Notes under the pieces: model-generated
The model's input: only the letters and a program-made list of their open reading frames with translations
Databases searched by the model: none
What the model was told of the DNA's origin: nothing
Position numbers and translations under genes: made by a program
Shown here: piece by piece, positions 279-29,100 of the stretch
Layout: the number at the start of each line of letters is the position of its first letter
How positions within the stretch are numbered: position 1 is the first letter of the stretch
DNA from: Candidatus Uhrbacteria bacterium
GTDB taxonomy: Bacteria; Patescibacteriota; Patescibacteriia; UBA9934; GWF2-40-263
DNA: 48,465 nucleotides
Assembly (NCBI GenBank): GCA_016844925.1
Contig: JAERTI010000053.1
Coordinates: forward strand, 1-48,465
Reading direction: 5' to 3'

Positions 279-1232
279 ATGGCATCAGGAAAGACATGTT
301 CTTTGCATGCAATTCTAGGGATCGTTCTGTTTGGTGTCGCGCTGTTTGTTACGTTGTCGATGAATACTCGTGACACGCAGGCAGATGCAGTATCGACACA
401 ACTAGAGGTGACGAATAATGCTCCGACGGTTTCGGACGTGTTTATAAATAATTCGGCGTACACATTTGCCGATAGTTTTGTTGGTGGGACGATTATACTC
501 GTTGCTGGTGGCCAAAAGACCGTTCACGTCACAGGAAATGTTCGCGACACAAATGGTCGAGGAGATATTTCAAGTGTAGAGCTAAAGTTTTTTAAGACCA
601 TTATTGGCAGCGGCTGCATTTTGGATTCAAACGATTGTTACGAGGTCCAGGTGTGTTCAACACGAAATGACACGGAGGGAGACTTAGAGATTCTTGAATA
701 TGACTGTCCGGTGGATCTTGATTACTGGACGGATTCAACATCGTTGGGAGGTACTTCACCAGCCTCACATTGGACCACTAGAGTCGTGGTGACCGATAAC
801 GCAAGCGCAACAGGATCTGATACCTCAACCACGAAAGAAATCGGTACCCTTCTTGCCCTCGATATCCCTACGGCTATCGATTACGGAACGCTCAGTAAAG
901 GAGAAAGGACAACGTCTGCAAACAATCAGCACATGCTTTTAGGGCAGCGGGGGAATGACGTTGCGGATGTCGAGGTGTCTGGAGCAGATATGACATGCAC
1001 AAACACTGGTACGATTCCTTACGCGAATCAAGAATGGTCGCTTAGTGATACGGACCACTCCGCGTCAGGCTCTTATGATCTTTCAGGTACGGCCGTCGAT
1101 ACAAATATTGCCATTGGTTATAAAACGAGCACGGATGTGAGTAAGAATCTGTACTGGAATATCGAGCTTCCTGCTCAGGATGTTTCTGGAGTTTGCACGG
1201 GCACCATGACGGTTATTGCTAAGGCTGCCTAA
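279..1232 (+). CDS. Secreted two-domain beta-rich protein, tandem paralog (putative fibre/surface subunit)
   Basis: Signal peptide ending TQA, NNAPTV start of an Ig-like domain, conserved Cys, C-terminal YWNIELP...SGVCTGTMTVIAKAA. Confidence 0.85.
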   Translation: MASGKTCSLHAILGIVLFGVALFVTLSMNTRDTQADAVSTQLEVTNNAPTVSDVFINNSAYTFADSFVGGTIILVAGGQKTVHVTGNVRDTNGRGDISSVELKFFKTIIGSGCILDSNDCYEVQVCSTRNDTEGDLEILEYDCPVDLDYWTDSTSLGGTSPASHWTTRVVVTDNASATGSDTSTTKEIGTLLALDIPTAIDYGTLSKGERTTSANNQHMLLGQRGNDVADVEVSGADMTCTNTGTIPYANQEWSLSDTDHSASGSYDLSGTAVDTNIAIGYKTSTDVSKNLYWNIELPAQDVSGVCTGTMTVIAKAA

Positions 1233-1311
1233 CTCACCATCAGCAACTTTATTTATGTGAAGAGTTTGTTTAGATAGTTTAAGTAACGGAGTTAACAAGC
1301 TGTTTAATGTT

Positions 1312-2268
1312 ATGGCATCAAAAGACCTTAGTTCCTTGCACTGGATCCTCGGTGCCGCTCTTATCCTCATAGGATTGTTTGTGACAGTTTCTCTTGTGGG
1401 CACAAGTTCACAGGCCGACACGGTGAATACTCAGACCAATGTCACGAACCATTCTCCAACCGTGGAGGACGTGTTCATTAATACATCCCAATGGGCTTTT
1501 TCAGATGGATTTGGTAGTGGTACGTTGAACGTTGTGCCTGGTGGAGCTGAAACTATCTGGATCAATGGAAACGTCCGCGATCAGAATGGTGGTGGGGATA
1601 TTGATGATGTGAGTGTTGAGTTTTACAGAACGACAATGAGCACGGGTTGTGCGCCAGATTCTAACTATTGCTATACCGCAAACGGCTGTTCAACACAGAA
1701 TGATACCGAAGGAGACCTTGAGGTCCTTGAGTACTCCTGTACATTCAATCTTGATTACTGGACGGACTCAACTAGTACAGGTGGAACGGCGCCGTCTGAC
1801 GATTGGACAACCACGGTCACCGTGACAGATAACGCTGGTTCCACGGGCTCTGATTCTTCTGTGACGAAAGAAATTGGAACTACACTTTCGTTGGATATTC
1901 CAACCACCATCAATTTCGGTACCCTGAGCAAGGGGCAGAAGACGACTTCTCTGAATAATCAAACACACGTAATCACACAGCGAGGAAATGACGAGGCAGA
2001 CGTCGAGGTTTCCTCTGCTTCTGATATGACCTGCACCAACACGGGTACCATTCCTGTGGCAAACCAGGAGTGGAGTTTGACAGACGAGGATCATTCGGAT
2101 GCTTCCATGGCTGACCTCTCGGGTTCTGCGACTGATACGAACTTGGGTGTTGGCTACAAAACCTCAGGTGATGTTTCTAAAAATCTTCACTGGAATATTG
2201 AACTTCCAGCATCAGATATTTCCGGTACTTGTACGGGGACGGTTACAGTCACGGCTATTGCTGCTTAG
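1312..2268 (+). CDS. Secreted two-domain beta-rich protein, tandem paralog
   Basis: Signal peptide SLHWILG...SQA; collinear with neighbouring paralogs (NDTEGDLE, LDYWTDSTS, NQEWSL, WNIELP). Confidence 0.87.
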   Translation: MASKDLSSLHWILGAALILIGLFVTVSLVGTSSQADTVNTQTNVTNHSPTVEDVFINTSQWAFSDGFGSGTLNVVPGGAETIWINGNVRDQNGGGDIDDVSVEFYRTTMSTGCAPDSNYCYTANGCSTQNDTEGDLEVLEYSCTFNLDYWTDSTSTGGTAPSDDWTTTVTVTDNAGSTGSDSSVTKEIGTTLSLDIPTTINFGTLSKGQKTTSLNNQTHVITQRGNDEADVEVSSASDMTCTNTGTIPVANQEWSLTDEDHSDASMADLSGSATDTNLGVGYKTSGDVSKNLHWNIELPASDISGTCTGTVTVTAIAA

Positions 2269-2308
2269 TAATAAATGATCATAAAAATTTAAGAAATTTT
2301 TTAAGACT

Positions 2309-3265
2309 ATGTCTTCAAAAGATACCAATTCCTTGCACTGGATTCTCGGAGCCGCTTTGCTTCTCATTGGGCTGTTCGTTGTTGTTTCTCTTGTAGGTGT
2401 GAACTCACAAGCTGATAGCGTGAACACGCAGACCAACATTACTAATCATTCGCCAACGGTTGAGGATGTGTTCGTAAATGACGCACAATGGGTCTTTTCT
2501 CCTGGTTTTGGGGGTGGGTCAATCACTGTTGTGCCTGGTGGTCAGCGAGATGTTTGGATTAACGGAAATGTGCGTGATCAAAATGGTCGAGGAGATATTC
2601 TCGCGGTAAAAGGCCAATTTTATAAAACTACAGCAGGCGATACTTGTACTCCCGATTCAAATGACTGTTATGCAGAAAGTTCCTGCTCAACCCAGAATGA
2701 TACAGAGGGAGATCTCGAGGTTCTTGAGTATTCTTGTTTAATGAGTCTTGATTACTGGACAGATTCTACGAGTACAGGAGGTGCTTCACCTAGTACTGAC
2801 TGGACCGTGAAAGTTGAGGTTGTTGATAATGCCATGACGACTGGATCAGATTCTTCAGTAACAAAAGAAATTGAAACAACGCTTGCTCTTACTATTCCAA
2901 CAACAATTAACTTCGGTACGCTCACAAAAGGTCAGTCGACAACATCTGCTAATAATCAGCATCAGGTTATTGGGCAAAACGCGAATGATGAGGGGGATGT
3001 GGAGGTTTCGTCTGCTGCTGACATGACCTGTACGAATACAGGAACAATTCCTGTTGCTAACCAAGAGTGGTCGCTGACTGATGTCGATCATTCAGATCCA
3101 GCAGGTACCGACCTTTCGGGTTCTGCTGCGGATACGAACCTGGGTGTTGCCTACAAAACAACGGGAGATGTATCGGAGACACTCTATTGGAACATTGAGC
3201 TTCCAGCATCGAACATTTCCGGTACTTGTACGGGTACAACAACGGTTACAGCAATTGCTTCTTAA
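2309..3265 (+). CDS. Secreted two-domain beta-rich protein, tandem paralog
   Basis: Same length and motifs as 1312..2268. Confidence 0.87.
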   Translation: MSSKDTNSLHWILGAALLLIGLFVVVSLVGVNSQADSVNTQTNITNHSPTVEDVFVNDAQWVFSPGFGGGSITVVPGGQRDVWINGNVRDQNGRGDILAVKGQFYKTTAGDTCTPDSNDCYAESSCSTQNDTEGDLEVLEYSCLMSLDYWTDSTSTGGASPSTDWTVKVEVVDNAMTTGSDSSVTKEIETTLALTIPTTINFGTLTKGQSTTSANNQHQVIGQNANDEGDVEVSSAADMTCTNTGTIPVANQEWSLTDVDHSDPAGTDLSGSAADTNLGVAYKTTGDVSETLYWNIELPASNISGTCTGTTTVTAIAS

Positions 3266-3276
3266 TGCAGTGCTAC

Positions 3277-3305
3277 AAAAAACACCTCCATATGGAGGTG
3301 TTTTT
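3277..3305. terminator. Bidirectional intrinsic terminator between convergent paralog array and topA
   Basis: aaaaaacacctccatatggaggtgttttt palindrome with A and T tracts. Confidence 0.8.
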
Positions 3306-13615: not shown

Positions 13616-13687
13616 CATATCCACAGTTTTACCTGCTCGTTTATGGGTACATGCGGTACAATAGGTGCACGCAAAGGCGTATTACAC

Positions 13688-15610
13688 ATGCGACGCCTGA
13701 TGACCCATACAAGGCACCCCGTTTTCTCTCGCGCGGCCACATTTGCCGTAGTGAGTTTTTGTGTTTTACTCCTCTGGTTCCTTGGGGCAAAAGAGGTTGC
13801 TGCACAAACGGCTTTTGAACGGTTTGGCGATGCGACGACACTTTCTCAAGATCCAATCGGGATCATCATTGCGCGTGTCATTCGGGTGTTCCTCGGTTTG
13901 ACGGGTGTTATCCTAACCGCGTTGGTGGTCTATGCAGGTTACCTGTACATGACGGCACAGGGGGTTCCAGCTCAGATTGAGAAAGCAAAGAACATCATCA
14001 AAAATGCCGTCATTGGTTTGGTTATTATATTCTCTTCATTTGCGATTACTACCTGGATTTTGAATGCCCTTCTAGATGCCACATACACTGGCAGTGTTGA
14101 AGCTGTTGCGGATAGTTATTCTGAGCCGTTTAGCACAGCACTAGGTGCAGGTGTGCTTGAGGATCATTACCCAGAACGGAACGCTTCAGATATTCCGCGG
14201 AATACCAATATTTTTGTCACGTTTAAGGAGGCGATTGAAGTTTCTAGCATTATTAAGGATTACGATACAGATCCAACGTCCACTGACTTGAACTTAGACA
14301 GTGTTCTTATCTACCCGACGGAAGATGGAGTCGGATCAGCACTTGCCACAGACGCCGTTCAAGTTTCCGTCACGGACGATCACGAGATTTTCGTATTTGA
14401 CCCGGTTGATTATCTTGGGAATGCAGAGACGGATACAAACTACACAGTCGTATTAACCTCTAATATTGAGACAGAGGATGGCGATCCTGCCTTCACGGGT
14501 TCGTCAGTGAGTGGGTATGATTGGACCTTTGAGGTTTCAACAGAAATCGACTTGACCCCACCGTATGTCGTGTCAGTTGTACCTGCCGCCGAGTCAGAAG
14601 AGCCGCGTAATATAACGATCGAGATCAACTTTTCGGAAGCAATGAATCCTATTGCTGTAACGGGAACCTATGACGGGTCAACGGAGCTCTTTTCAAATCT
14701 TACGGCCATTGCTGAAACGAGTGGTCAAGTAAATGGCACCTGGGAAATTTCAAATGGATACAAGACCGTCGGATTCACAACAACAGATGCCTGTGGGGAA
14801 GATCCATGTGGTGACATTATTTACTGTCTCCCAGGGGAAGAGGAGATCGACGTGACGGTGAAGGCGGCTACGATTAACGAGGATGATCCACCACAAGCTG
14901 CTATTGGAAGTCCGCTTTACGATGGTGCAGCCGATGCAGCGAGCAACTCGCTTGATGGTGACAATGACGAGGTTGCTTGTGGATCAGATTCAAACACGAT
15001 TACCTGTCCTGATGGCGACGATAACGACAACTACGAGTGGAGTTTTGAGACGACAGATGAGATCGAAGACACGGTTCCGTACATCACAGCGCATTATCCC
15101 GATATCAGCGAGGGGGAGATTGATCAGACAGATCCAGTAGCGGTCTCTTTCAACGGGTACCTAAAGTCCTCAACAGTTAACACGAGCTCAGTATCGCTTT
15201 GGCCAGATCCGTACTACGGCATGTGGTTCAATGTGCGTAAGACCGATGATTACGATGAGGATGGCACATTAGATTCGTCAGATTTTGATGGTGATGGTAT
15301 TGAGGAGTTCTTTAATACAGTCATGATTCAGCACCCAACGTTTGTGAGTACTGATGAGGGTGGTTGGGACTACTGGCCTGTGCTGACAAACGATATCAAG
15401 AGCACGTATCAAATCTGCATGTTCCCAGCGATGGATGAACTCAGTTGTGGTGATCCAGATGACCCACCACCAATACGATCTTCCTCCGCGCCATGGTGTT
15501 GTGAGGGCCGTCCAGGTACAAGTGAGTGTCAGACGGACGCACAGTCACTGCTGCCAACGCCGTCTGAGGGTGACATCGTTCTCCCAAATAATATCGAAAC
15601 CGCACTTTAG
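13688..15610 (+). CDS. VirB2/TrbC-like pilin domain plus two Ig-like (Big_5-type) domains; surface protein
   Basis: Signal peptide (VAA/Q), VYAGYLYMTAQG...[15 protein letters not shown] pilin motif, P-N-x-P-R-N...F...Y..W.F.T Ig repeats; start placed downstream of TACAAT at 13657. Confidence 0.85.
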   Translation: MRRLMTHTRHPVFSRAATFAVVSFCVLLLWFLGAKEVAAQTAFERFGDATTLSQDPIGIIIARVIRVFLGLTGVILTALVVYAGYLYMTAQGVPAQIEKAKNIIKNAVIGLVIIFSSFAITTWILNALLDATYTGSVEAVADSYSEPFSTALGAGVLEDHYPERNASDIPRNTNIFVTFKEAIEVSSIIKDYDTDPTSTDLNLDSVLIYPTEDGVGSALATDAVQVSVTDDHEIFVFDPVDYLGNAETDTNYTVVLTSNIETEDGDPAFTGSSVSGYDWTFEVSTEIDLTPPYVVSVVPAAESEEPRNITIEINFSEAMNPIAVTGTYDGSTELFSNLTAIAETSGQVNGTWEISNGYKTVGFTTTDACGEDPCGDIIYCLPGEEEIDVTVKAATINEDDPPQAAIGSPLYDGAADAASNSLDGDNDEVACGSDSNTITCPDGDDNDNYEWSFETTDEIEDTVPYITAHYPDISEGEIDQTDPVAVSFNGYLKSSTVNTSSVSLWPDPYYGMWFNVRKTDDYDEDGTLDSSDFDGDGIEEFFNTVMIQHPTFVSTDEGGWDYWPVLTNDIKSTYQICMFPAMDELSCGDPDDPPPIRSSSAPWCCEGRPGTSECQTDAQSLLPTPSEGDIVLPNNIETAL

Positions 15611-15613
15611 TAC

Positions 15614-18600
15614 ATGAAACGTTTCCATTTCCCACGTCTAGCCGGCTTCTTGCTGGCGCTGACCATCAGCGCTGGCCTTGTCTTTGCGCCGCCGGTAATG
15701 GCTCAGACAGTGGATTTTGAAGCGTTTGCAACGGCCGCAGGGTTCTCTACAGATGCGGACGTCACGGTCATTATTGCGAGGTTGATTCGAACGGCCATTT
15801 CTCTTGTGGGGGTGATTGCTGTTGTGCTGATTATCATCGGAGGCTTTAAATTCATCACTGCCGCTGGTGACCCCACAAAAGTTCAGTCTGCCAAACGAAC
15901 GATCATGAATGCGGTGATTGGTTTGGTGATTGTGTTTGCTTCCTTTGCGATCACACAGTTTATTTTGAATGCGCTTGTTGATGCGACGGGGGGTACGGTG
16001 ACTGGCACCTCATCGAGCTACACCTCAACTTCAACATCAAGTACTACGAGTTCACAGTTTTATCTAAGTTCTTTGAACAATGAATGTTCAGAGGCGTTAA
16101 AGAACTTGCAGTTACAATTTGTCTTTTCCAGGAGTGTTGATGCTTCATCAACAGCGCTTGGTATTTTGGTTCAGGATGATGGGGCGGATGTTGATGGCAC
16201 CTTTGATATTTCTGGAAGATCGGTGACGTTTACGCCAAATCAAGTTTGTCCAGAGGACTCCTCGCAATATTGTTTTGATGCATCAACCGACTACACGGTG
16301 GACGTTGTCTCTGGAGTTTTGGTGTCCACCTCCGGCGCAGACCTTGTTTGTACAGATGCCTATCCGTGTAATTTCTCGTTTACAACAGGAACGGAAATTG
16401 ACACAGAGGGACCCACCATGGAGATCGATGATCCAGAAGACGGAGATTCCGTCTATCAAGATGGCGACCCTACAAAGCTTTGGGCAAATACAACGGATGA
16501 CACAGGTGTATCGACCGTTGATTTTTACGTTGTTACAGGTGACTCAGCTATCTACACGGCAGGAACAGACTTCTCAACCGAAGGCGTGCTTACTGGCGGC
16601 GATGCGGTAAATACGTTCTTTACGGACGATGCTGAAGAGTGGGACACAACAGGATACGTGACGAACCAGGAGTATCGTATTTGGGGAAAGGCCTATGACT
16701 GTGCAGGTAACACGGCCACTGCAGGTAGAATTGAAATTGTATTGCGTGCCGCAAACTGTAATAACGCCACTATTGATACAGAACTTGGGGAGGAGGAGTT
16801 GAACTGTGGTGGGGACTCAGACAGTGAGTATTACTGTGGTGCTTGTGCTGGGGCTGCTTGTGAAGAAGATTCCGACTGCTCTAGTGGTGAGTGTGTAGAT
16901 GGTGTCTGTGTTGATCGTGTAAAGATCACAGACATGTCACCTGGTGATGGTGCTGAAGGGAACCTTGTGACCATTGAAGGAGCTTCTTTTGGAAGTACGC
17001 CTGGAACGGTGACGTTCTTGGGTGGTGATGGGGATGATGACGATGTTGATACGAGTGCTTACACGTGTAATGCAGAGGTGCAGTGGTCTGACACAGAGAT
17101 TATTGTCGAGATTCCTACGGGGGCCGTAGATGGATATATCGCGGTAACGACAGCAGACGGGGATACGGACACGACCAATGATGACTATGGTCCGAACATG
17201 GCTGAGTTTGATGTAAATGCGATTGTTCGCTCTGGTATCTGTCAGCTCTCGCCCGATAGCGGAGAGCCAGAGACGTCCGTGGGTGTTTACGGAATTGGAT
17301 TTGGGTCATCTCAGGGAACATCGGAATTTCTCTTTGGGTCATACACCCCAGGAACATACATTTCATGGGCTGATGAAGAGTATATTGAGGTGTCCGTGCC
17401 AAATGTGAACAGCGGTGTCTACAAGGGGCAGGTCATAACAGGGGATTACGTTTGTATTGACTCCGGTGGAACATCCACAGGAGTCACTTGTAGCGAGGAC
17501 AGTGACTGTAATACTGATGGTGGCGAGAGTTGTGCGACTGGTTGGTGCTCAGAAACTCTTCATTACTGTGAAGAGGATGACGACTGTGGTGATGATGACG
17601 GGACCTGCGAGTCCATCATTGTCGGCTCTAATAGGGTGAGTTACACCATTGAAGATATTGACGCAGATGTCACGCCGGTCATTTCATCTATCGATAGCGG
17701 GTGGACGGCCTGTGAGGGTGGTTTTAATGCTGGTGATCGTTGTTCTGATGATGATGATTGTGGGGCGGGAACATGTGAGGACGCTGGAGATACTGGTCCG
17801 CCAGGGCAGTACATCACGATTTACGGAACGGGATTCGGTACGACAGAAGGACTCGTTTGGTTTGAGAACCAAGACTCAGGTGTCTATGCCTTAGGTGATA
17901 CGGAGTTCCCAGATGTGTGTGGGGACGATTTTTGGCATTCCACGTCAATCACGGTGAAGGTGCCGGAGGAGTACAATACAGACTCTCCGACGGCTGTTGA
18001 TTTTGATGAGTATAATTTGACGGTTGAGCGACCTGATGGCGGTGAGTCTGACGCCGTCGATTTTGAAATTTTGGATGACACCCCTGGGCCATCTGCTTGT
18101 CGCATCACCCCATCGGCTGGTCCTGCTGGTACAAGTGTCACGATTTACGGTGAGAACTTTGGTGACAGTGGTGACGTTGAGTTTTATTCAGAGGAAACCG
18201 CTTCTGTAGGCGATTGGGATAACGATGAGCTGAGTTACGTTATTGTTCCTTCTGCGGCTCTTACGGGTCCTGTGGCAGCGACAGAAGACACAAGTGGTTA
18301 TAGTTCAAACTCGTTGAATTTTTCTGTAGGCGACTGTCGTGAAGACGCAACGCTTTGTTCTGAGGCTGAGGCTTGCTGTGCAGATGGTTCCTGTTCCTCA
18401 AGTTGTCCTGCATCAACCGAAGTCTCCAGTCATTACGCCTACAAAATCTCCACGGGCATTACACCGCTGGTTCCTGAGGTGGTGATTCAGTGTTCTGATA
18501 GTGCGAAGTCTCCATCCCCATGGGAGGGTTGGAGTGACCCAGAGGACATTTGTATCGATGCAAACATCCGCGCAGATTTCACTCTCGCTATTGATCCGAC

Positions 18601-21600
18601 AACGTTGAACGGATCGACGGTTGTGGTGGAGCGTTGTGATACAGAAGATGGAGAAGGGGGCTGTACGGAAGCTGGGTGGAGTACCGTGGATTCGACAGAT
18701 TTCTCGTTTGTCCGCACGGATACAACCGTTATTTTGCAACCAGTTAGTTTCCTCGCGCAAGATACGTTGTACCAGGTAACGCTTGATGGTGATGGCACGC
18801 TTCCAGACATTCAAGCGACAGCGGCTGCCGGTGGCGGATATCTCGACGGGAATTTTAGTTGGCAGTTCCGCACACGTGAGAGCACGGACCAGTGTGAGGT
18901 CGGCGATGTATTGATTACGCCTAATGAGCATACTGCCACAGAAGTTGGAACCATTTCTTACTACGCTTCGCTTGTTGCTGCGGGTGACAGCTGTGTCACC
19001 ATTTCTTGTAGTGGTTATGAGCTTGAGTGGGATGCTGATAGTTCTGCAGCCACGATTCCAACAGAGGAGCCTGGAGTAGGTATTTGCGATAACACGGTGG
19101 TGGCGGTATCAGAAACGCCAGCTGAGACTCCTGTGATTATTTCTGCTGAGGTAGATGCCGAAGGAACACCATCGGGCGATGGGGATCTTTATATCAATTT
19201 TGTTGATCCTGAAGTTGAGGACTACTTCCCAGACTGTTCCACAGCCTGTATCAACGCGTTGCCGTATGCAGAGTTCAACGTCGCCATGGATGACAGTTTT
19301 ACCTATGGTGCAAGTGGCAACATTCGTATGGCTGAGTGTCCTGACTCACTCTGTCATATAGATGAGATCGATTACGATGCCGTGGATTTTGTGAGCTCAG
19401 CGTCCTATTCAGATACAACACACATACTTTCTATCGTCTTCAATTACGAGGAGACTATGGAAGCGAATACCTGGTACCGAGTATGGATCGATGGGGAGGT
19501 TGAGTCAGCTACAGGAGTAGCACTTGAGGAGTCTGGGTCAAACTACGGCACCGAAGCAAACCTTTATTTTGAAGATGACTTCTCTTGGAAGTTTAAGACC
19601 AAGGACTCAGATGTCACCTGTGATATCGATTCGGTTTCTGTGAATCCGTCCTTGATCAACATGAGTTACATCGGCGAGCGTGCAGAGTTTGATGCGACAG
19701 CTGTCGGTGAACCAGATGACTGTTCGGCAAGCGGGCAAGCACTACAGGCAGGTGACTACACATGGGACGCGTGGACAGCGACGGATAATCCCGACACGAT
19801 TACACCTGCCAGCGGAACGTCTACGACACAAGAAAACATTGTGGCCTACATGGTTGCTGACGGCGCCATCGATCTCACGGATGAGATTCCTGCGTACTGC
19901 ACAACCTCTTGTTTGTACGCCGGTGCACCGGTAACAGAGTTTGACGCAGTTTGTGGAGATAATAGCGTTGATACAGGAGAAGACTGTGATGACGGAAATG
20001 ATGCTAATGGCGACGGTTGTTCATCCACCTGTCTTTATGAGACGGATGAGGTGAGTCAGTGTGCACAGGAGTGTTCTGGATCTGGAGCGACATGTACATC
20101 AGATAGCTCCTGTGAGGAAACGTGTGAGAGCGCAACATGCTCAAGCGCCTCTGACGTTGGGAATGCTTGTACGGCTGATGAAGATTGTGACAGTGGTAGT
20201 TGTGGTGACGAGGCGACCTGTGAAGATTACGAGGATGCAGACAACGAATGTTCCAGCAACGACGCCTGTTCAGGTTCCTGTGTTGGAGAGTGTTCTCTCA
20301 CAGGAAGTAGTTGTTCAGGACCTGACACAGACTGTTCTTACTCCAGTGGTGATACCTGTGACATCACGGGTATTGGCTGTTGTGGTGATGGAACCCTCAA
20401 TGCAGGGAACTTTGAAGAATGTGACGACGGCAACCTCTCCAGTGGCGATGGCTGTTCATCAAGTTGCCAGAACGAAGGATCTTCATCTGTTGGCGCTGCC
20501 TGTGGGGATGGATCACGTGATTACAACCCGAGCCAGGGTGGAGAAGATTGTGATGATGGCAACAATGTTAGCGGTGATGGCTGTTCAAGGCAGTGTTTGA
20601 ACGAGGGGTCTACCTCTGATGAAGATGCGTACTCCAGCTGTGGAGACGGATTCATTGGCCTAGGTGAAGAGTGTGACGATGGGACAACGGATGGACTCGA
20701 TGGCGTCATGGAAGACGGTGATGGTTGTTCTGTTGCTTGTTTGAACGAAGGTTCATTATCTATTGGTGCGACATGTGGAAATGGAAGTCGTGATTACACA
20801 CCTATTGAAGGAGGGGAGGATTGTGATGATGGAAATACAGAGAACGGCGACGGTTGTTCATCTGACTGTTTGAATGAAGGCGCCTCTTACAACAATACGA
20901 TTATTTCGTTCTGTGGCGATGGAGACATTACCTGGCTTGAGGCCCGGGGAGGTGAGGAATGTGACGCTCCTACCACCGCAACGTATGTCAACGGCGATTA
21001 CGCTGTAAGTGTCGTGGCAACAGGTGCACCGATGGAGGTGGATTCAGCAACATCACTTGCAACCTCTGATATTTCTGTGACAGCCGAAGATGAAACAGGG
21101 ACAGCCAATCTTCAGCTCGAATGTTCTTGTACGATGGACTACATGTGTTCTACAGATGGATCACTTGGTTGTGGTGATTCTGGTTGTTGTGTGCCACGTC
21201 CTGAATATGGAACGATCAATCCAGCAGATAATACGTCTGCACCTGGTGATGGTCACTGTCGAAACACGGCTGTGTGGGTTGAGTTTACGGAAGACATGAA
21301 TGAGCTGACCTTTGATGAGAGTGTGGATGAAAATGATGATGGGGTGATTTCAGATGACGAGTTTGATGCAAATCTTTATCTTGATCTTGTCGAGCTAGAA
21401 GGATCAGAGGTGACAAGCGCAACGTGTCCGACAGACGATGGGTACGTTGGAGTTTCGTTTGCCATGGAGGACCAGCCAATCTTGGTTCGCGCCTGGAGCT
21501 GGTTGAAGCGAACCGTACTTGGATTCTTTGGTCGCACAGCGGTTGCTTCAGATGCCTACGGTTGTTACGTCCCTGTCACCTACGAGACCATGCGTGTTGA

Positions 21601-24600
21601 TAGCGATGGTGACAGCGCGATTGATTCCATGCGTGTGTATCTCCGTTACAGTACGCTTCTTGAGGAGGATGCAGAATACCGACTTGTGATGCTTGGAGAT
21701 GATGAGGATGAGGATACGTTGCACGAAGGGCTCATCAGCGCGTACGGAGGGGCACTCTGTATCGGTACGGCATGTTCCGACGATGAGGCCACGCAGAGCT
21801 TCTATGTCGGCGAAGAGATTTGTGAGCTTGATGAAGTGGTGACAGAGGACCAAGGTGACATCACGGCAGCATCCTATGAGGATGCAAGTTCGGGATTGTT
21901 TACATCTGCTGACGAGGTGCATCAATTCCTTGCAACGCCATACACGATTCGTTCTAGTGGTGTCCGAGAGGAGATTACAGAGCTTCCATTGGCGTATGAA
22001 TGGGAATGGAGCTGGATTTCAACGTCGACGAGCAATACACCAACAGATGATGACGTGGTTGAAGTTGTGGCGGATGTTGATGCGGTAACAGCGCAATTCC
22101 AAAGTGCCGGACTGAACGGGGTTGATGTGGCTCTGGCAACGGCAACGATTACAACGGATGAGCTTTTTGAAACATCAACGGCTGGTTCCACAGTGACCGG
22201 TCCGGAAGATGTCACAGCATTGCTTTGTGAGAACGTCTGGCCTGCCACAGACTCCAGTCTTGGATTCCCGTATGTTGAGGATGATCTGCCAAGTTACTTC
22301 TCGTTCTATTACTGTCGCGATGCAGGTGAAGAGGGGACAGACGATGACCTTCCTGCCTTAAACGATCCAATCGAAGTTGCTTCACTTTCGTCATCTGGAA
22401 TCACGAAGGAGTTGATCTTCCAGGTGGATGGTACGAGTGATGCTATTGGTGTGCGTGTGATTCCGAACGAGGAATACCTCTCACCAAGTGCTTGGGTAGA
22501 GGAGCAGGGATTCACGGGGTCTTTTACGGAAACAACACTCGATGGCTACCAAGCTGTGATGGCTGGAACCACGTACTACGTAGCAGCGGCCAATGAATAC
22601 CAATCAACGCTGTATCCAAATATCTACGTTATTTCTTACAACGAAGATGCTGGTGATGAGGCGTCTGAGATCTTTGCACTGATCATGGATACCTTTGTTT
22701 TCAATGCTAATGACGATGATGTTGAAGATGTGGCCTTGTGTCGTTATGGATCATCGGATTACACGACAGACGAAGATGGAAGCTATATTTCTTGTGAGTA
22801 CGAGAGTGATTGTTACGAGGCCTGTGAGGATGGAAGTTGTTCTCATGATGCCGAGGATATTGATTGTGTAAATGACAAAGGAAAGCTCACCCGTGACATG
22901 AAGCGTCTTACGGATGTGACAGACATGATTGCGGTGATCGATGCCTATGGCGAGGACAACATGCACTGTTCCGTCACCAAGGGGCAGAGCTGTGATGAGG
23001 ATGACGATTGTCCTGGTACGGAGGAGTGTCTCGAGGGATATCCAGAGATTCAGACGGGAACCTTTATTCCTTCGCTCACTAATTCGATTTGGGGTTCCTG
23101 GAATAGTGAGCTGAGCAACGCCCTGGGCTCAACACTTCCAACCGATCCAATCAACGAGTTCTTCCAGTGTGACGAAGAGGGCTATGACGAAGCATCTTGT
23201 TGGAACGGGGAGTCTGGTACATTCATGTGTCCAGATGATTCTCATTTGTACAGCTATCAAAGTGTTGGTGGTGAGGCGTACATGCTCTATGCGCAGCTCG
23301 AGATCGCAGGTGAGCGTACATGGGCCTACGATATTGACATGAGTAGCACGGATAATGTCACGGTTACGGTTGAATATCCCTATCGTCACGCCCCATCAAG
23401 TTCGCTTACCATTCAAGACGGATTCGATCGTACAGCAGACTTCTGTGACGGTGACGCGATTGGAGAGGATGTGATCTGTGGTGATGGTATTCAGGGTGTT
23501 GGTGAAGCTTGTGAGCTTGGTGATACAGACGTTGAGCTTTGTGACTATGACGGCGATGGAACAGCAGACGATGGCCAGGTCACCGTTTCTTGCTATAAGG
23601 ACTCGACTGACCAATGTGTCATGCAGACAGCCTCAGAGGCAGAAACAGAAGGGGCTGAGTGTTTCCCATTTGAGTGTGGAAACGGTGTCATCGATGGTGA
23701 TGAAGAGTGTGATGACGGATCACTCAACGGTACCTATGGATTCTGTGGTGATGATTGTACCTACGACGACGCCTACTATTGTGGAGACGGATACCTTGCC
23801 GGTGGTGAGGAGTGTGACTGTGGAACCACATCCAACTTCAGCACCCTCGCTTCTGACACCTGGGCGGTTGCTGTTGGAACTTGTGATGTATCGAACGGAC
23901 AATACTCATCAGATATCGATCTTTCGTGTGCGTACAACTGTACGGCTCCAGGATTGGCTTGTGGCGATGAGGTCGTGAACGGTTCTGAGGAGTGTGATGG
24001 AGACTACGAAGAGTATGCCGGCGCGCTGTGTGACGATGGTTCTGGTACCGAATGTGTTTCAGATGATGATTGCGATTCTGGGGTCACATGTGGAGGGTCA
24101 GCCACCTATGATGCTTGTGGTATTGGAGATGTCTGTGCAGATTACGAAGATGCAGGAGACGCGTGTACTGATGGCACAGATTGCGATTCAGGATCTTGTA
24201 CAAATGACACCTGTGATGGTGCCAGTGATGTGGGTGTTGCCTGTGATTCCACATCAACGCTTGGAACCTACATTTATTCTTCCGGTGTGTGTGAGTCGCA
24301 TACGTGCCCAGACTTTGATTACGAACTCTTCCGTTATCGAACTTGTGCTGGACCAACGGATTCTAACGCCTGTGAATGGAATACTTGGCAGGATTGTGTT
24401 GGTGGTACACAGCAGTGTGGAAACGGTGAGGTTGAGGGGACCGAAGCTTGTGACGACGGAAATGGATCAAACAATGATGAATGTACAAATAACTGTGAGC
24501 TCAATGTCTGTGGCGATGATCACGTGAATGTTGGTGTAGAGAGTTGTGATGATGGCGATGACAACGGTGAGGAGTGTGAAGCGGGCTATGAGAGCTCTTG

Positions 24601-26380
24601 TACCTACTGTACGACCACCTGTCAGTACCAGGTTCGCTCTGGTGGATACTGTGGTGATCAGGAGGTGAATGGAAATGAGGTGTGTGACGGGGCGTATTCA
24701 ACAGAGTTTATGTACTACGATGCAGGTGTTCGTGAGATAAGTGGGACTTGTGATGAATATGACGTGGATACAAAGACCGTTAGTGACCTTGATGATGATG
24801 GAGTTGATGAGACGTTTTCATGCCGATGGATTGGAGTCTGTAATGGCGGAAGTGAAAACGGTGATTACTGTACGCTCGACTACGCATCCTATGTGGTTCT
24901 TGGAACCATCGGTGATCTTAACTCTGGTTCTGATCGCAACAGCTGTGGCTCAGACGGAGAGTGTGTTCCACCTGTCTGTGCCGGTGATTGTGGATCTTCG
25001 TGTCCTATTAGTTTCGAGACAACTAGCTTGCTTGTACAGAGCGAGCTTGAGGGGGCTGAGCCGACAGGATCCATCGATTTGTACAGTTACCAGAATGACG
25101 AAGGAGCTTCTCCTGACAACGGTGTGATTTACGTACCTGCGTGTACGGTGGCAACATCTCTCGTGGCTGATATCGATGACGAAGAAGTGGTTCTTCCAGA
25201 TGTAGACATTGTCTTTGTGACGGACTTGTCTGGTTCTATGGATTGGGATCCTGATAGAAATGATTACTGTGAAGGTGGAAGTAATGATGGGGATTCATGT
25301 TCAGCGCATAGCGAGTGTGGATCCACGACCTATTCTTGTAGTAGTGGATACTGTACAGGCGGGATTTTCAACGGTGATGAATGTTCATCAAGCGCTGATT
25401 GTCCTGAATATGCTTGTTCGGAATACGGGGCACCTGTTGGAGAACGTCGAATTGATTTCGTTGTAGACGCAACAAAGGATGCCATTCAAGATCTGTATGA
25501 TGCCTATGATCTTTCATCTGCCGAGATGCAGGTTGGGTTGGTGTCCTACTCAACAAATTTTGAAAGTAGTGCTTCAGCGTTCTGTGACTATGGTGGATCA
25601 ACGGCTCCGTCTCGTGACGGTGCCTGGATGGATACGTATTCTGACGACGGAGTGGGGCTGCTGAGTGATTCATGGGAGAATTCAGTTGTTGCTTATGTGG
25701 ATGCGTACACGGCTTGTGTGGAAAGAGGTTCTGGTGGAACAACGACTTATTCTGGTGTTGATAGGGCGCTTACGGGTCTATCAGCTTCAACGGCGGATGT
25801 GAAGATTGTGGTGCTTCTTTCTGATGGGGACCCATCTTATAGTGCGGATTTCTACCTCTCAGGTGACGGCGATACGTGTACTGAGGAGACCTCAAGCTAC
25901 CAGGGTTCTTGGACAGGAGTGGAAGCCTGTGTGGCTGATATTGCAGATGATTTCATGGAAGATAATTCTTACTCAGACATCATCTTCTATTCAGCGGCCG
26001 TAACGACCGATGATGACCTCAAGGGATACATGGCCCACATGTCGAGTAATGAATGTGCTTGGGACGATATCGAGGATGAGGATGACTGTGAGGGGAACTA
26101 TGCCTTCGCGGCGGAAACGGCTGATGAAATTACGGAGATGTACGCAGCTATTGTGAACTCTATTTTGGGAACGAACGTAGCGCTCTCGGCTGAGAATAAT
26201 GACAACGAGATCATTACAACGATTGGAGAAGTGCTCCCTGGTGGAAGCACCACGCTCCCATTCCCAGATGAGTTTGTCTGTCAGTCCTCTGAGCAGACGC
26301 TACCACTGCGTCATGAATTCTACGGAAGTGGCTACATGACCTTCGATGACATTACACTCACTTACTGTCCGTACGAGTAA
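15614..26380 (+). CDS. Giant (3588 aa) acidic Cys-rich multidomain surface protein/adhesin
   Basis: Signal peptide, pilin motif [13 protein letters not shown]...[11 protein letters not shown], Big_5-type Ig, IPT/TIG (SP..G..G..VTI.G..FG), CGDG..EECDDGN...DGCS..C repeats, GspG/pilin-like segment, VWA with MIDAS (DLSGS, T, SDG). Confidence 0.92.
19940..20970 (+). repeat. Coding tandem Cys-rich repeats (Myxococcus-type/DUF4215-like), cluster 1
   Basis: Repeated CGDG/CGNG...EE/EDCDDGN...GDGCS..CLNEG units; two RDY(N/T)[10 protein letters not shown] copies. Confidence 0.85.
23470..24700 (+). repeat. Coding Cys-rich repeats, cluster 2
   Basis: CGDG..GEAC, CGNG..EECDDG, CGDE..EECDG, CGNG..EACDDGN, CGDQ..EVCDG. 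Confidence 0.8.
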
Positions 26381-26381
26381 T

Positions 26382-27155
26382 ATGGATTTGAACGATTACC
26401 CAACCGAGCGAAACATTCCGTGGAAGCCAGTGGCTCTAGGTGCCGGCGCTCTGGTTTTGGTTGTTGTGTTGATTGTCGTTCTCCTGCGGGTGTTTGGTGG
26501 GGGAGCGGAAGAGGTGATTTTGATTCCACGTGGTGAGGCAGATGTAGAAGAGTTGTCTGTGGGTGAGATTACACAGCTGGCCGAAGAGCAGCAGTCGGCA
26601 GATGTGTGTGAGTATCTAGATGATGAGCAGGAAAAAGATAATTGTTACTGGGGTGTTGCCAAGGAGAGCGCGGATGCGTCCTATTGTCAGAGCATGGTGA
26701 GCAATGCGGATCGGTGTCATGACAGTGTGTACTTGAGCCTGGCACTCGAGAAAAGTGATTGGGCCTACTGCGCCGAGATGATTGACGGTACACGACGTAC
26801 GCAGTGTGCGGAGCTATTTGCTTCGCCCGTGACTGATGAGCGATGTGAACCAGGGAGTCAGCGCTGTGAAGATCTCGATCAGTTAGCAAGAGCGATTGAG
26901 GCAGCTGACATCGAGCTCTGTAGTCCAATTGAAGACGGGTCCCTGTATGAAGATTGTCTTGTGGGAGTTGAGGATGTCTTGCTAGAAGTCGGCACGCCAG
27001 ACCCAGATGAAGATGCTGACGGTGATGGACTGACGCTTGCTGAAGAGCAACAGTATGGAACCGATCCGAACGATCCTGATACTGACGGTGATGGGTACTC
27101 CGATGGCGACGAGGTTGCTTCCGGATATAACCCTACCGGATCAGGTTCTCTCTAA
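26382..27155 (+). CDS. Membrane-anchored protein with spaced Cys repeats and C-terminal DxDGDG (thrombospondin type 3-like, Ca-binding) repeats
   Basis: IPWKP then TM; C-x9-10-C repeats; [33 protein letters not shown]; ATG 1 nt after the giant gene stop. Confidence 0.85.
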
Positions 27156-27194
27156 ATTCAACGATCAACTGCCAACTACATAATCTTTCTCTCT

Positions 27195-28010
<816 letters not shown>

Positions 28011-28014
28011 CATC

Positions 28015-29100
28015 ATGTTCGACAAAAAGAAAAAACAAATCGAAAAGCCCACCGCCGTAGAGGCGCAGGCTCAAGCAACACCCTCAGGACCCGAGGCGCG
28101 CGTCTTTACGATGCCTGAGCGCTATAGGCATGGTGCAGAGGGAAAAATGCATGAGCCAGAGAAAAAGAAGAAATCAAAAGCTCAGGTTGAAGTAAAAGCC
28201 CCTGCCGCCCCATCAGCACCGCCACCTCCACCAAAACCGAAAACTCCTGCCAAAAAGGGCAGGAGCACGAAATTGATTGTTATTGGTGGTCTTATCGGAA
28301 TTATTATTTTGGCTCTTGGGGGATGGTTTGCGCTTACACTTGTTGCAGAGCCTGAACCGGTTGTCGTAGTAAGGGAAGAACCTGAGGAACCAGAAGAGCC
28401 TCAGGTTGTCGAAACAGAGGAACCGGAGGAGCCAGAGGAACCAGAGGAGCCTGTAGAGCCAGAGGGAGATCCGTTTGCTACGGAGGTGACTCCTGGTGTG
28501 GACTCAGACTCTGACGGACTCTCAGACACGGAGGAGGATCTTGTGTATGAGACGAACTCACGACTTCCAGATACAGACGCGGATGGGTTCTTGGATGGCA
28601 ATGAGGTGTTCCATCGCTATAACCCAAATGGAACAGCACCGGGAACGTTGATCGAGTCAGGATTAGTGGTGCTCTACCAAGGGCAGGCTGGTTTAGAGCT
28701 CTTCGAGTTTAGCTACCCGACGGTATTTGAAATGGAGGAGATCGATGGTGAAATTGTGTTGGATGCGCAAACTGGAGAAGGGTTTAGGATCACGTTTGAG
28801 GAAAAGGCTGTGGCAGTGGATCTTGTTGATTGGGTAGAGCAAGAAGTGGGTCTTGAGGACTATGTTGAAGATACGACCAAGACAGGACTCCCGCTTGTTC
28901 AGTCCAACAACTTACTTGTTGCCTATATTGACTTAGGGTCTGCCGTACTCGTGTTTAACTACGATACCGGGATTAAGGCGCGCGTCGACTATCTCCAGAC
29001 ACTCAAGATGATGATCAACTCGGTTGAGCTTGTGGGAGCTGTGGCGGTTGACGAAACATTCTCTGAGCCCGTCGAGGTGGTGGACGAGACGGCGCTATGA
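28015..29100 (+). CDS. Membrane-anchored protein with EEP linker, DxDxDG repeats and C-terminal globular domain
   Basis: Lys/Pro-rich N-terminus, TM, EEPEEP, DSDSDGLSD..E, PDTDADGFLDGNEV...YNP; ATG at 28015 after upstream stop. Confidence 0.83.
   Translation: MFDKKKKQIEKPTAVEAQAQATPSGPEARVFTMPERYRHGAEGKMHEPEKKKKSKAQVEVKAPAAPSAPPPPPKPKTPAKKGRSTKLIVIGGLIGIIILALGGWFALTLVAEPEPVVVVREEPEEPEEPQVVETEEPEEPEEPEEPVEPEGDPFATEVTPGVDSDSDGLSDTEEDLVYETNSRLPDTDADGFLDGNEVFHRYNPNGTAPGTLIESGLVVLYQGQAGLELFEFSYPTVFEMEEIDGEIVLDAQTGEGFRITFEEKAVAVDLVDWVEQEVGLEDYVEDTTKTGLPLVQSNNLLVAYIDLGSAVLVFNYDTGIKARVDYLQTLKMMINSVELVGAVAVDETFSEPVEVVDETAL

Follow-up and report, generated by a model that had tools for sequence, protein, structure and literature searches.

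The giant gene and its internal pilin-head-like domain

The stretch of DNA analysed here (the window) comprises 48,465 nucleotides of contig JAERTI010000053.1 (C53) from a Candidatus Uhrbacteria bacterium, a member of the ultrasmall Patescibacteria. Its forward strand carries an open reading frame (ORF) for a giant protein of 3588 amino acids (aa), and about two thirds of the way along this protein lies a domain that resembles the head of a type IV pilin. An earlier note, made from the letters of the window alone, had drawn attention to positions 22880-23302 (+), equivalent to aa 2423-2563, and had proposed that this segment is a pilin- or pseudopilin-type head that lacks the hydrophobic N-terminus. 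Translation reproduced exactly the string quoted there, which consists of 26 residues, a Cys module and 27 residues. The interval falls inside the domain that we describe below. Its right end, however, was placed too short; the structural models put the last beta-strand at aa 2582-2587, which makes the limits of the domain approximately 22871 and 23377. The features of this domain and of the protein that contains it are collected in Table 1.

Table 1. Coordinates in the window of the pilin-head-like domain, its parts and the other features of the giant protein.
Feature	Positions	Strand	Details
Pilin-head-like domain	22871..23377	+	aa ~2420-2588; contains 22880-23302
Long helix, equivalent of pilin alpha1-C	22871..22957	+	aa 2420-2448; R-D-x-x-R-x-x-D motif common to true pilins; model H25-53
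First Cys-rich insertion, between helix and Y-P	22961..23035	+	four invariant Cys (C57, C65, C71, C77)
Alpha-beta-loop helix with invariant S-x-W-x-S-W, then L-P-x-D-P-x-N	23093..23155	+	invariant S96, W98, S100, W101, D116; model H99-109
Second Cys-rich insertion, ahead of beta-hairpin	23168..23230	+	domain C124, C134, C144
Beta-hairpin with Y-x-Y ... L-E motif	23249..23296	+	model E151-156, E160-166; invariant Y151, E168
Third sheet strand, beyond the coordinates of the earlier note	23357..23374	+	model E187-192; two-domain model E384-389
Giant ORF	15614..26380	+	3588 aa
VirB2-like T4SS_pilin hairpin (PF18895), N-terminal, after a signal-peptide-like start; presumed membrane anchor	15764..15964	+	aa 52-117
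Mog1/PsbP-like alpha-beta-alpha domain, upstream of the pilin-like head	22232..22714	+	aa ~2207-2367
Acidic Cys-rich linker, in the place of pilin alpha1-N	22715..22870	+	aa ~2368-2419; pLDDT 50-69 over first 30 model residues
VWA-like region, limits approximate	25196..26053	+	PF00092; D-x-S-x-S MIDAS-like motif at aa 3204

According to the available text of PMC8179133, the definition of a type IV pilin includes a class III signal peptide. The hydrophobic first half of the long helix (alpha1-N) is the part by which pilins are kept in filaments and in tip complexes. Neither a class III signal peptide nor a prepilin motif was found before the helix of the head domain, where the preceding residues form the acidic Cys-rich linker. 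A regular-expression scan of 150 listed homologues likewise revealed no class III motif adjoining the domain, and four chance matches elsewhere. Lacking both of these defining parts, the head domain is not a type IV pilin, and it equally lacks the signal peptide that marks a pseudopilin of the type II secretion system (T2SS).

To define the family, aa 2410-2600 were used as a HMMER query against 1.84 billion representatives, which yielded 945 homologous proteins with E<=1e-3, of which 365 had E<=1e-10. Among the 150 listed homologues, the majority are proteins of 2000-4200 aa in which the head again lies about two thirds along (aa ~2000-3300); the remainder are shorter, down to 193 aa, and several of these begin in mid-domain, as fragments at contig ends would. 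An alignment of 43 head-domain segments (A1) contains 16 invariant and 13 nearly invariant positions, with a mean column identity of 40%. Among the invariant columns are all four Cys in the first insertion, the P in Y-P, the S-x-W-x-S-W motif, the D of L-P-x-D-P, two more Cys and the Y and E of the hairpin, so that the Cys modules are features of the family. Insertion lengths differ among the relatives. In five proteins (P0142, P0090, P0148, P0152 and P0109) and at seven loci the first Cys insertion is missing altogether and the helix runs directly into G-x-Y-P. These natural relatives confirm that the first piece is an insertion, and the small Cys-rich pieces thus behave as the earlier note had supposed. 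Seven relatives without the first insertion were aligned separately (A4).

Homology to pilins

Evidence for a relationship with pilins comes from the comparison of profiles. As a reference we aligned nine PF08334-positive Patescibacteria pilins (A5), drawn from 11 ORFs in 7 of 151 genomes of the phylum. When A1 was compared with A5, hhalign returned a probability of 96.8% (E 2.3e-10, score 67.8) over 67 columns, and A4 gave an almost identical result (96.9%, E 1.8e-10, score 67.4, again 67 columns). The aligned span proceeds from the R-D-x-x-R-x-x-D helix to Y-P, through the alpha-beta loop and on to L-P-x-D-P, the L-P-x-D-P-x-N of the head domain being aligned with the L-P-x-D-P of the T2SSG-class pilins. 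Reversed alignments reached 0.2%, and in the two sets of 30 column shuffles the probabilities did not exceed 3.2% and 0.7%, with top scores of 21.3 and 16.8. The likeness of the head domain to pilins is therefore beyond chance, and the domain is homologous at the profile level to bona fide members of the T2SSG family (PF08334).

A second comparison employed 33 relatives of the genome's own major pilin (A2), whose close relatives carry the source labels Candidatus Uhrbacteria or Patescibacteria. A1 matched A2 at 90.2% (E 1.5e-6) over 24 columns of the helix, and A4 matched it at 87.1% over 35 columns that extend to Y-P; reversed and 30 column-shuffled alignments remained at or below 4.3%. When 15,222 open-frame pieces of the genome were searched with a hidden Markov model (HMM) of A1, the best match after the domain itself was the major pilin ORF on contig C38 (E 0.027). 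The leads for the head domain in the ESM Atlas were weak (scores 0.77-0.83), and the only named families among them were T2SSG and N_methyl (0.77-0.80).

Predicted fold and the two-domain module

AlphaFold2, supplied with A1, predicted the domain with a mean local confidence (pLDDT) of 86.7 and a predicted template modelling score (pTM) of 0.81. The model consists of a 29-residue helix, a Cys knot, a short loop helix and three strands, and thus corresponds to the pilin fold, in which the C-terminal half of alpha1 packs on an antiparallel beta-sheet. In a structure comparison, the chains that matched the head domain among the top 50 of 48,161 were exclusively of pilin type. In the pilin rows listed, the VIA alignments of the model begin at about pilin residue 25. 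Together, the profile-profile homology to T2SSG-class pilins and the pilin-like predicted fold bear out the proposal of a pilin head without its hydrophobic N-terminus.

These data also bear on the possibility that a helix lying on a small sheet, together with a short helical motif, came to resemble a pilin head by chance or through packing, with no shared ancestry. Such convergence should not readily produce a profile match of 67 columns in which the order of the pilin elements is kept (R-D-x-x-R-x-x-D helix, Y-P, L-P-x-D-P), nor an hhalign score three times the best of 30 shuffles. It would also leave to coincidence the alignment of the helix, in the pilin rows listed, from residue ~25 of the pilin onwards, the fact that pilin-type chains alone matched the domain among the top 50, and the identity of the only families named among the weak ESM Atlas leads. 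We regard convergence as improbable.

In the aligned relatives the head is preceded by a conserved domain of about 170 residues. A two-domain alignment of 29 sequences from genome loci (A3) was used to model the pair, and the resulting 396-residue prediction (pLDDT 89.3, pTM 0.88) implies a fixed arrangement of the two parts. The upstream domain is predicted to form an alpha-beta-alpha sandwich with a central antiparallel sheet, the fold of Mog1/PsbP-like proteins, and no Pfam family matches it, though it is conserved across the class. As a whole, the models suggest that the Mog1/PsbP-like domain and the head form one rigid two-domain module. This module is conserved in a very acidic, Cys-rich giant protein, presumably of the cell surface, in one Patescibacteria class. 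Strong conservation is also seen in a C-x-N-P-W-P motif and in the F-S-F-Y-Y-C-R-D stretch immediately ahead of it.

We also looked for stand-alone pilins with such a head by applying the A1 profile to proteins of 87-350 aa. The one match, P0152, was rejected as it is not a prepilin; this protein of 325 aa is made up of a transmembrane start, the Mog1/PsbP-like domain and the head, and nothing else.

The giant protein and its relatives

The giant ORF encodes 192 Cys, 716 Asp+Glu and 87 Lys+Arg among its 3588 residues. At its N-terminus PF18895 matches aa 52-117 with E 6.7e-10 and 39.3 bits, above the Pfam cut-off of 26.6 (46.6 bits in a scan of the genome), and NF045849 of NCBIfam reaches 39.3 bits, below its cut-off of 40. 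With the gathering score exceeded by a two-helix hairpin that follows a signal-peptide-like start, the N-terminus belongs to the T4SS_pilin family. The suggestion in the earlier note that one polypeptide combines VirB2-like and pilin-derived modules is thereby upheld. Several Ig-like domains were detected with Pfam (TIG and Big_5 significant, Big_7 under the cut-off), as were myxo_disulf repeats with Pfam/NCBIfam and eight stretches of the Cys-rich acidic repeat TIGR02232 (E 5.4e-21). Near the C-terminus the PF00092 match is marginal (24.3 bits against a cut-off of 23.8, E 4.1e-5), with no single stretch that passes alone; the VWA-like region includes a D-L-S-G-S motif at aa 3204, which resembles a metal-ion-dependent adhesion site (MIDAS).

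The module is widespread in the class to which the window belongs, being present in 178 of 201 sampled genomes and in 168 of the 181 that are of high quality. In a sample of the whole phylum, 18 of 301 genomes had it, and 17 of the 18 belong to this class. Most of the listed matches are found within open frames of roughly 1900-4900 aa; the shorter ones, down to 321 aa, are possibly cut at contig ends. Among 11 full-length relatives, 10 have an N-terminal PF18895 match at E<=1e-3 (above 26.6 bits in six of these), four have a clear VWA domain, and most have TIG, Big_5 and DUF4215.

An alternative reading is that the domain is a pilin relic kept merely as a rigid, disulfide-braced link in a stalk and binds nothing itself. 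The location of the head among many Ig-like and Cys-knot repeats and the variable length of its insertions are what one would expect of a spacer. Yet 16 invariant and 13 nearly invariant positions in 43 sequences, including aromatics of the exposed type (S-x-W-x-S-W), are hard to reconcile with it and, unlike the repeated units of a stalk, the head is present as a single copy in each protein and never without the Mog1/PsbP-like domain as its partner. A pure spacer therefore appears unlikely, if somewhat less so than convergence.

A separate observation concerns an unrelated stalkless pilin head. In genome G336, L045:1432-2583 (-) is a 384-aa frame that starts with an ordinary transmembrane segment, continues with an unassigned middle region and ends in a stretch that matches PF08334 directly (E 6.3e-8) and has no class III signal peptide. 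It suggests that pilin heads have been reused outside the giant-protein family too, and hints that such reuse is perhaps a wider theme in the phylum.

Type IV pilus genes of the genome

The genome contains a full type IV pilus (T4P) set, with five prepilin-type ORFs above the PF07963 cut-off and two PilB-type ATPases. In all, PF07963 matches six ORFs; the major pilin ORF on C38 is among them and the giant ORF is not. The T4P genes are situated on contigs C43 and C38, apart from the giant gene on C53, so that co-location with pilus assembly genes does not mark the giant gene as a component of the T4P system. At C43:78241-79686 (+), in the same genome and outside the window, the T4P minor-pilin cluster includes a prepilin-like ORF of 481 aa (PF07963 18.8 bits, below the cut-off), which looks like a modular minor pilin because it has a long repetitive C-terminal part.

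The earlier note had supposed that the head could dock the giant adhesin on a pilus tip. On this idea the stalkless head, by pilin-pilin mimicry, would bind the giant protein to the tip or shaft of the cell's own type IV pilus, which would then present or move the adhesin. The head is indeed pilin-derived, a full T4P set is at hand, and it is the major pilin of this genome whose helix motif comes closest. However, the domain has no alpha1-N, the part of a pilin that holds filaments and tip complexes together, and the T4P genes are not near the giant gene. Moreover, the giant protein is presumably anchored by a VirB2-like hairpin of its own, and in the model (pTM 0.88) the head is packed on the Mog1/PsbP-like domain. 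We therefore consider docking of this kind very improbable. Equally improbable is the more elaborate proposal that the module is a coupling device by which the VirB2-anchored protein engages the cell's type IV pilus, or pilin-binding partners of the host, so that extension and retraction deploy or tension the 3400-residue adhesin during episymbiotic attachment. If it were true, this mechanism of attachment would define the lineage, given that most of the genomes sampled from the class have the module.

Origin and role of the head domain

Based on these results, we propose that aa ~2420-2588 are an evolutionary derivative of a GspG/T2SSG-class pilin head, exapted as a structural or binding module of a giant adhesin and not serving as a pilus subunit, a reading to which we assign a probability of roughly 0.62. 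As part of this reading, the class III signal peptide and the hydrophobic alpha1-N would have been lost from the head, and two disulfide-type Cys-rich insertions gained. The most likely order of events is that a GspG-class head was captured, braced by disulfide knots, fused to the Mog1/PsbP-like domain and fixed in the giant protein. The absence of alpha1-N is the reason for placing the domain among the modules of an adhesin and not among pilus subunits; lacking this part, the head could presumably be neither extracted from the membrane nor polymerised by the T4P machinery.

The protein itself would be exported and then retained in the membrane through the VirB2-like hairpin at its N-terminus. 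A chain of about 3400 residues would be projected, bearing Ig-like domains, Cys-knot repeats, the two-domain module and the VWA/MIDAS-like region. The role as an adhesin is suggested by the Ig-like, Cys-repeat and VWA-like content, by the epibiotic lifestyle of cultivated Patescibacteria and by the proposal that large Cys-rich proteins of the Candidate Phyla Radiation (CPR) function in attachment. Within the head, the invariant loop formed by S-x-W-P-S-W and L-P-x-D-P-x-N is where a functional surface, or else the interface between the two domains, would most probably lie.

Several observations weigh against this interpretation, and most of them come from direct searches. Pfam at E<=1 on the head fragment produced a noise match only, and no pilin family was reached at E<=10 in Pfam by the 43 family members or by 11 variants that naturally lack the first Cys insertion. 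NCBIfam contained no pilin family that matched the head, and searches of PDB sequences by phmmer with a single sequence and with two family profiles gave nothing meaningful. A search of the whole 1.57-Mb genome with PF08334 returned no candidate, so that the domain does not attain the T2SSG gathering score, and a plain HMM of the nine pilins retrieved from the genome five true pilins only and missed the head domain. Foldseek found no pilin with the models. The C-terminal hairpin was not aligned confidently by hhalign, also under greedy mact 0.01. Finally, the structures of the head and of the module are predictions, and we infer the surface location, the adhesion and the role of the loop from domain content only. 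In keeping with the searches just listed, Pfam and NCBIfam reported nothing over the head stretch when the whole giant protein was scanned, BLASTP of the head against the major pilin of the genome was not significant (E 0.22), and all that the direct family searches did match, weakly, were Cys-knot families, WAP, EB and Dickkopf_N among them. The earlier note would have given up its proposal had there been neither a pilin-like fold nor a profile hit to T2SSG or pilin families. The predicted fold is pilin-like, but a direct profile match to these families in Pfam, NCBIfam or PDB sequences is absent. Standard HMM libraries miss pilin heads of this type.

Neighbouring genes

The neighbours of the giant gene on C53 encode HisRS, YqeY, FtsA and FtsZ, together with other surface proteins. 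Immediately upstream, an ORF of 655 aa at 13643-15610 (+) starts with a T4SS_pilin (PF18895) hairpin and continues with Big_5 Ig-like domains. As it and the giant ORF both start with PF18895, the two appear to encode VirB2-anchored surface proteins in tandem. Directly downstream, at 26346-29100 (+), are three ORFs, the first of which shares 35 bases with the end of the giant ORF; those of 269 and 271 aa contain bacterial thrombospondin type 3 repeats and that of 370 aa has no Pfam match. Three tandem ORFs of 317-318 aa each at 279-3265 (+), also without a Pfam match, look like paralogues because of their equal lengths. PF18895 is found in 10 ORFs of the genome, which include the 655-aa ORF and five small genes (135-267 aa) that form a VirB2-like array at C36:95369-97738 (-), outside the window.

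Comparison with known systems

As it stands, the finding is a gain in annotation for a class-wide giant protein and not a new mechanism. Cultivated Patescibacteria live attached to host microbes, according to the text available from PMC11623550 and PMC11665869. The attachment proteins of the phylum are largely unannotated. Two formerly unannotated domains of a class-wide surface protein now acquire a name and boundaries, and aa ~2200-2600 constitute a defined module for structural and binding studies. Our literature searches found no description of this two-domain module, supplements and subscription journals lying outside their scope, and no pairing of a Mog1/PsbP-like fold with a pilin head.

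The upstream domain has no detectable sequence similarity to the known Mog1/PsbP-like proteins (BT_1490 3hlz, LpqN 6e5d, cyanobacterial and plant PsbP, MTC28, Tsi3 and DcrB). At the other end of the molecule, the N-terminal 120 residues match PF18895 and so resemble the VirB2-like pilins of the type IV secretion system (T4SS) in Patescibacteria (PF18895, PF04956), as presented in the available sections of PMC12102498. These sections describe small pilins and arrays, which the five-gene PF18895 array on C36 resembles, whereas the hairpin at the window locus bears an ectodomain of about 3400 residues. Large exported and very Cys-rich proteins of Peribacteria, a CPR lineage, are weakly similar to Cys-rich repeats of Myxococcus and have been proposed to act in attachment (PMC4736985, from excerpts). 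They average 1655 aa compared with 3588 here, and the excerpts mention no pilin-like module.

The closest comparison for the head is with the GspG/T2SSG-class pilins (PF08334), such as EpsG (4lw9), PulG (5wda) and those of Patescibacteria. Unlike these, the head in the giant protein is internal and is preceded by neither a class III signal peptide nor alpha1-N. With respect to the nine pilins of A5, it adds two Cys-rich insertions and the invariant S-x-W-P-S-W loop, and it does not reach the PF08334 model. As a composite, the giant protein is reminiscent of PilB of Streptococcus sanguinis, a modular pilin in which, as outlined in the portion of PMC8179133 at hand, a pilin-fold module and a VWA/MIDAS module, for which the giant protein has a VWA-like region, are likewise joined in one presumed adhesion polypeptide. 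The modular pilins described there have an N-terminal pilin module with a class III signal peptide and are polymerised; here the pilin-like part is internal and stalkless, the N-terminus is PF18895, and the giant protein has no N-terminal pilin module with the IPR012902 motif by which a modular type IV pilin is recognised. Type IV pilins owe their definition to the N-terminal stalk, and known modular pilins add modules to a complete pilin. The giant protein represents the reverse arrangement, in which the head alone, recognised solely through comparison of profiles and folds, has been built into a protein that is not a pilin.

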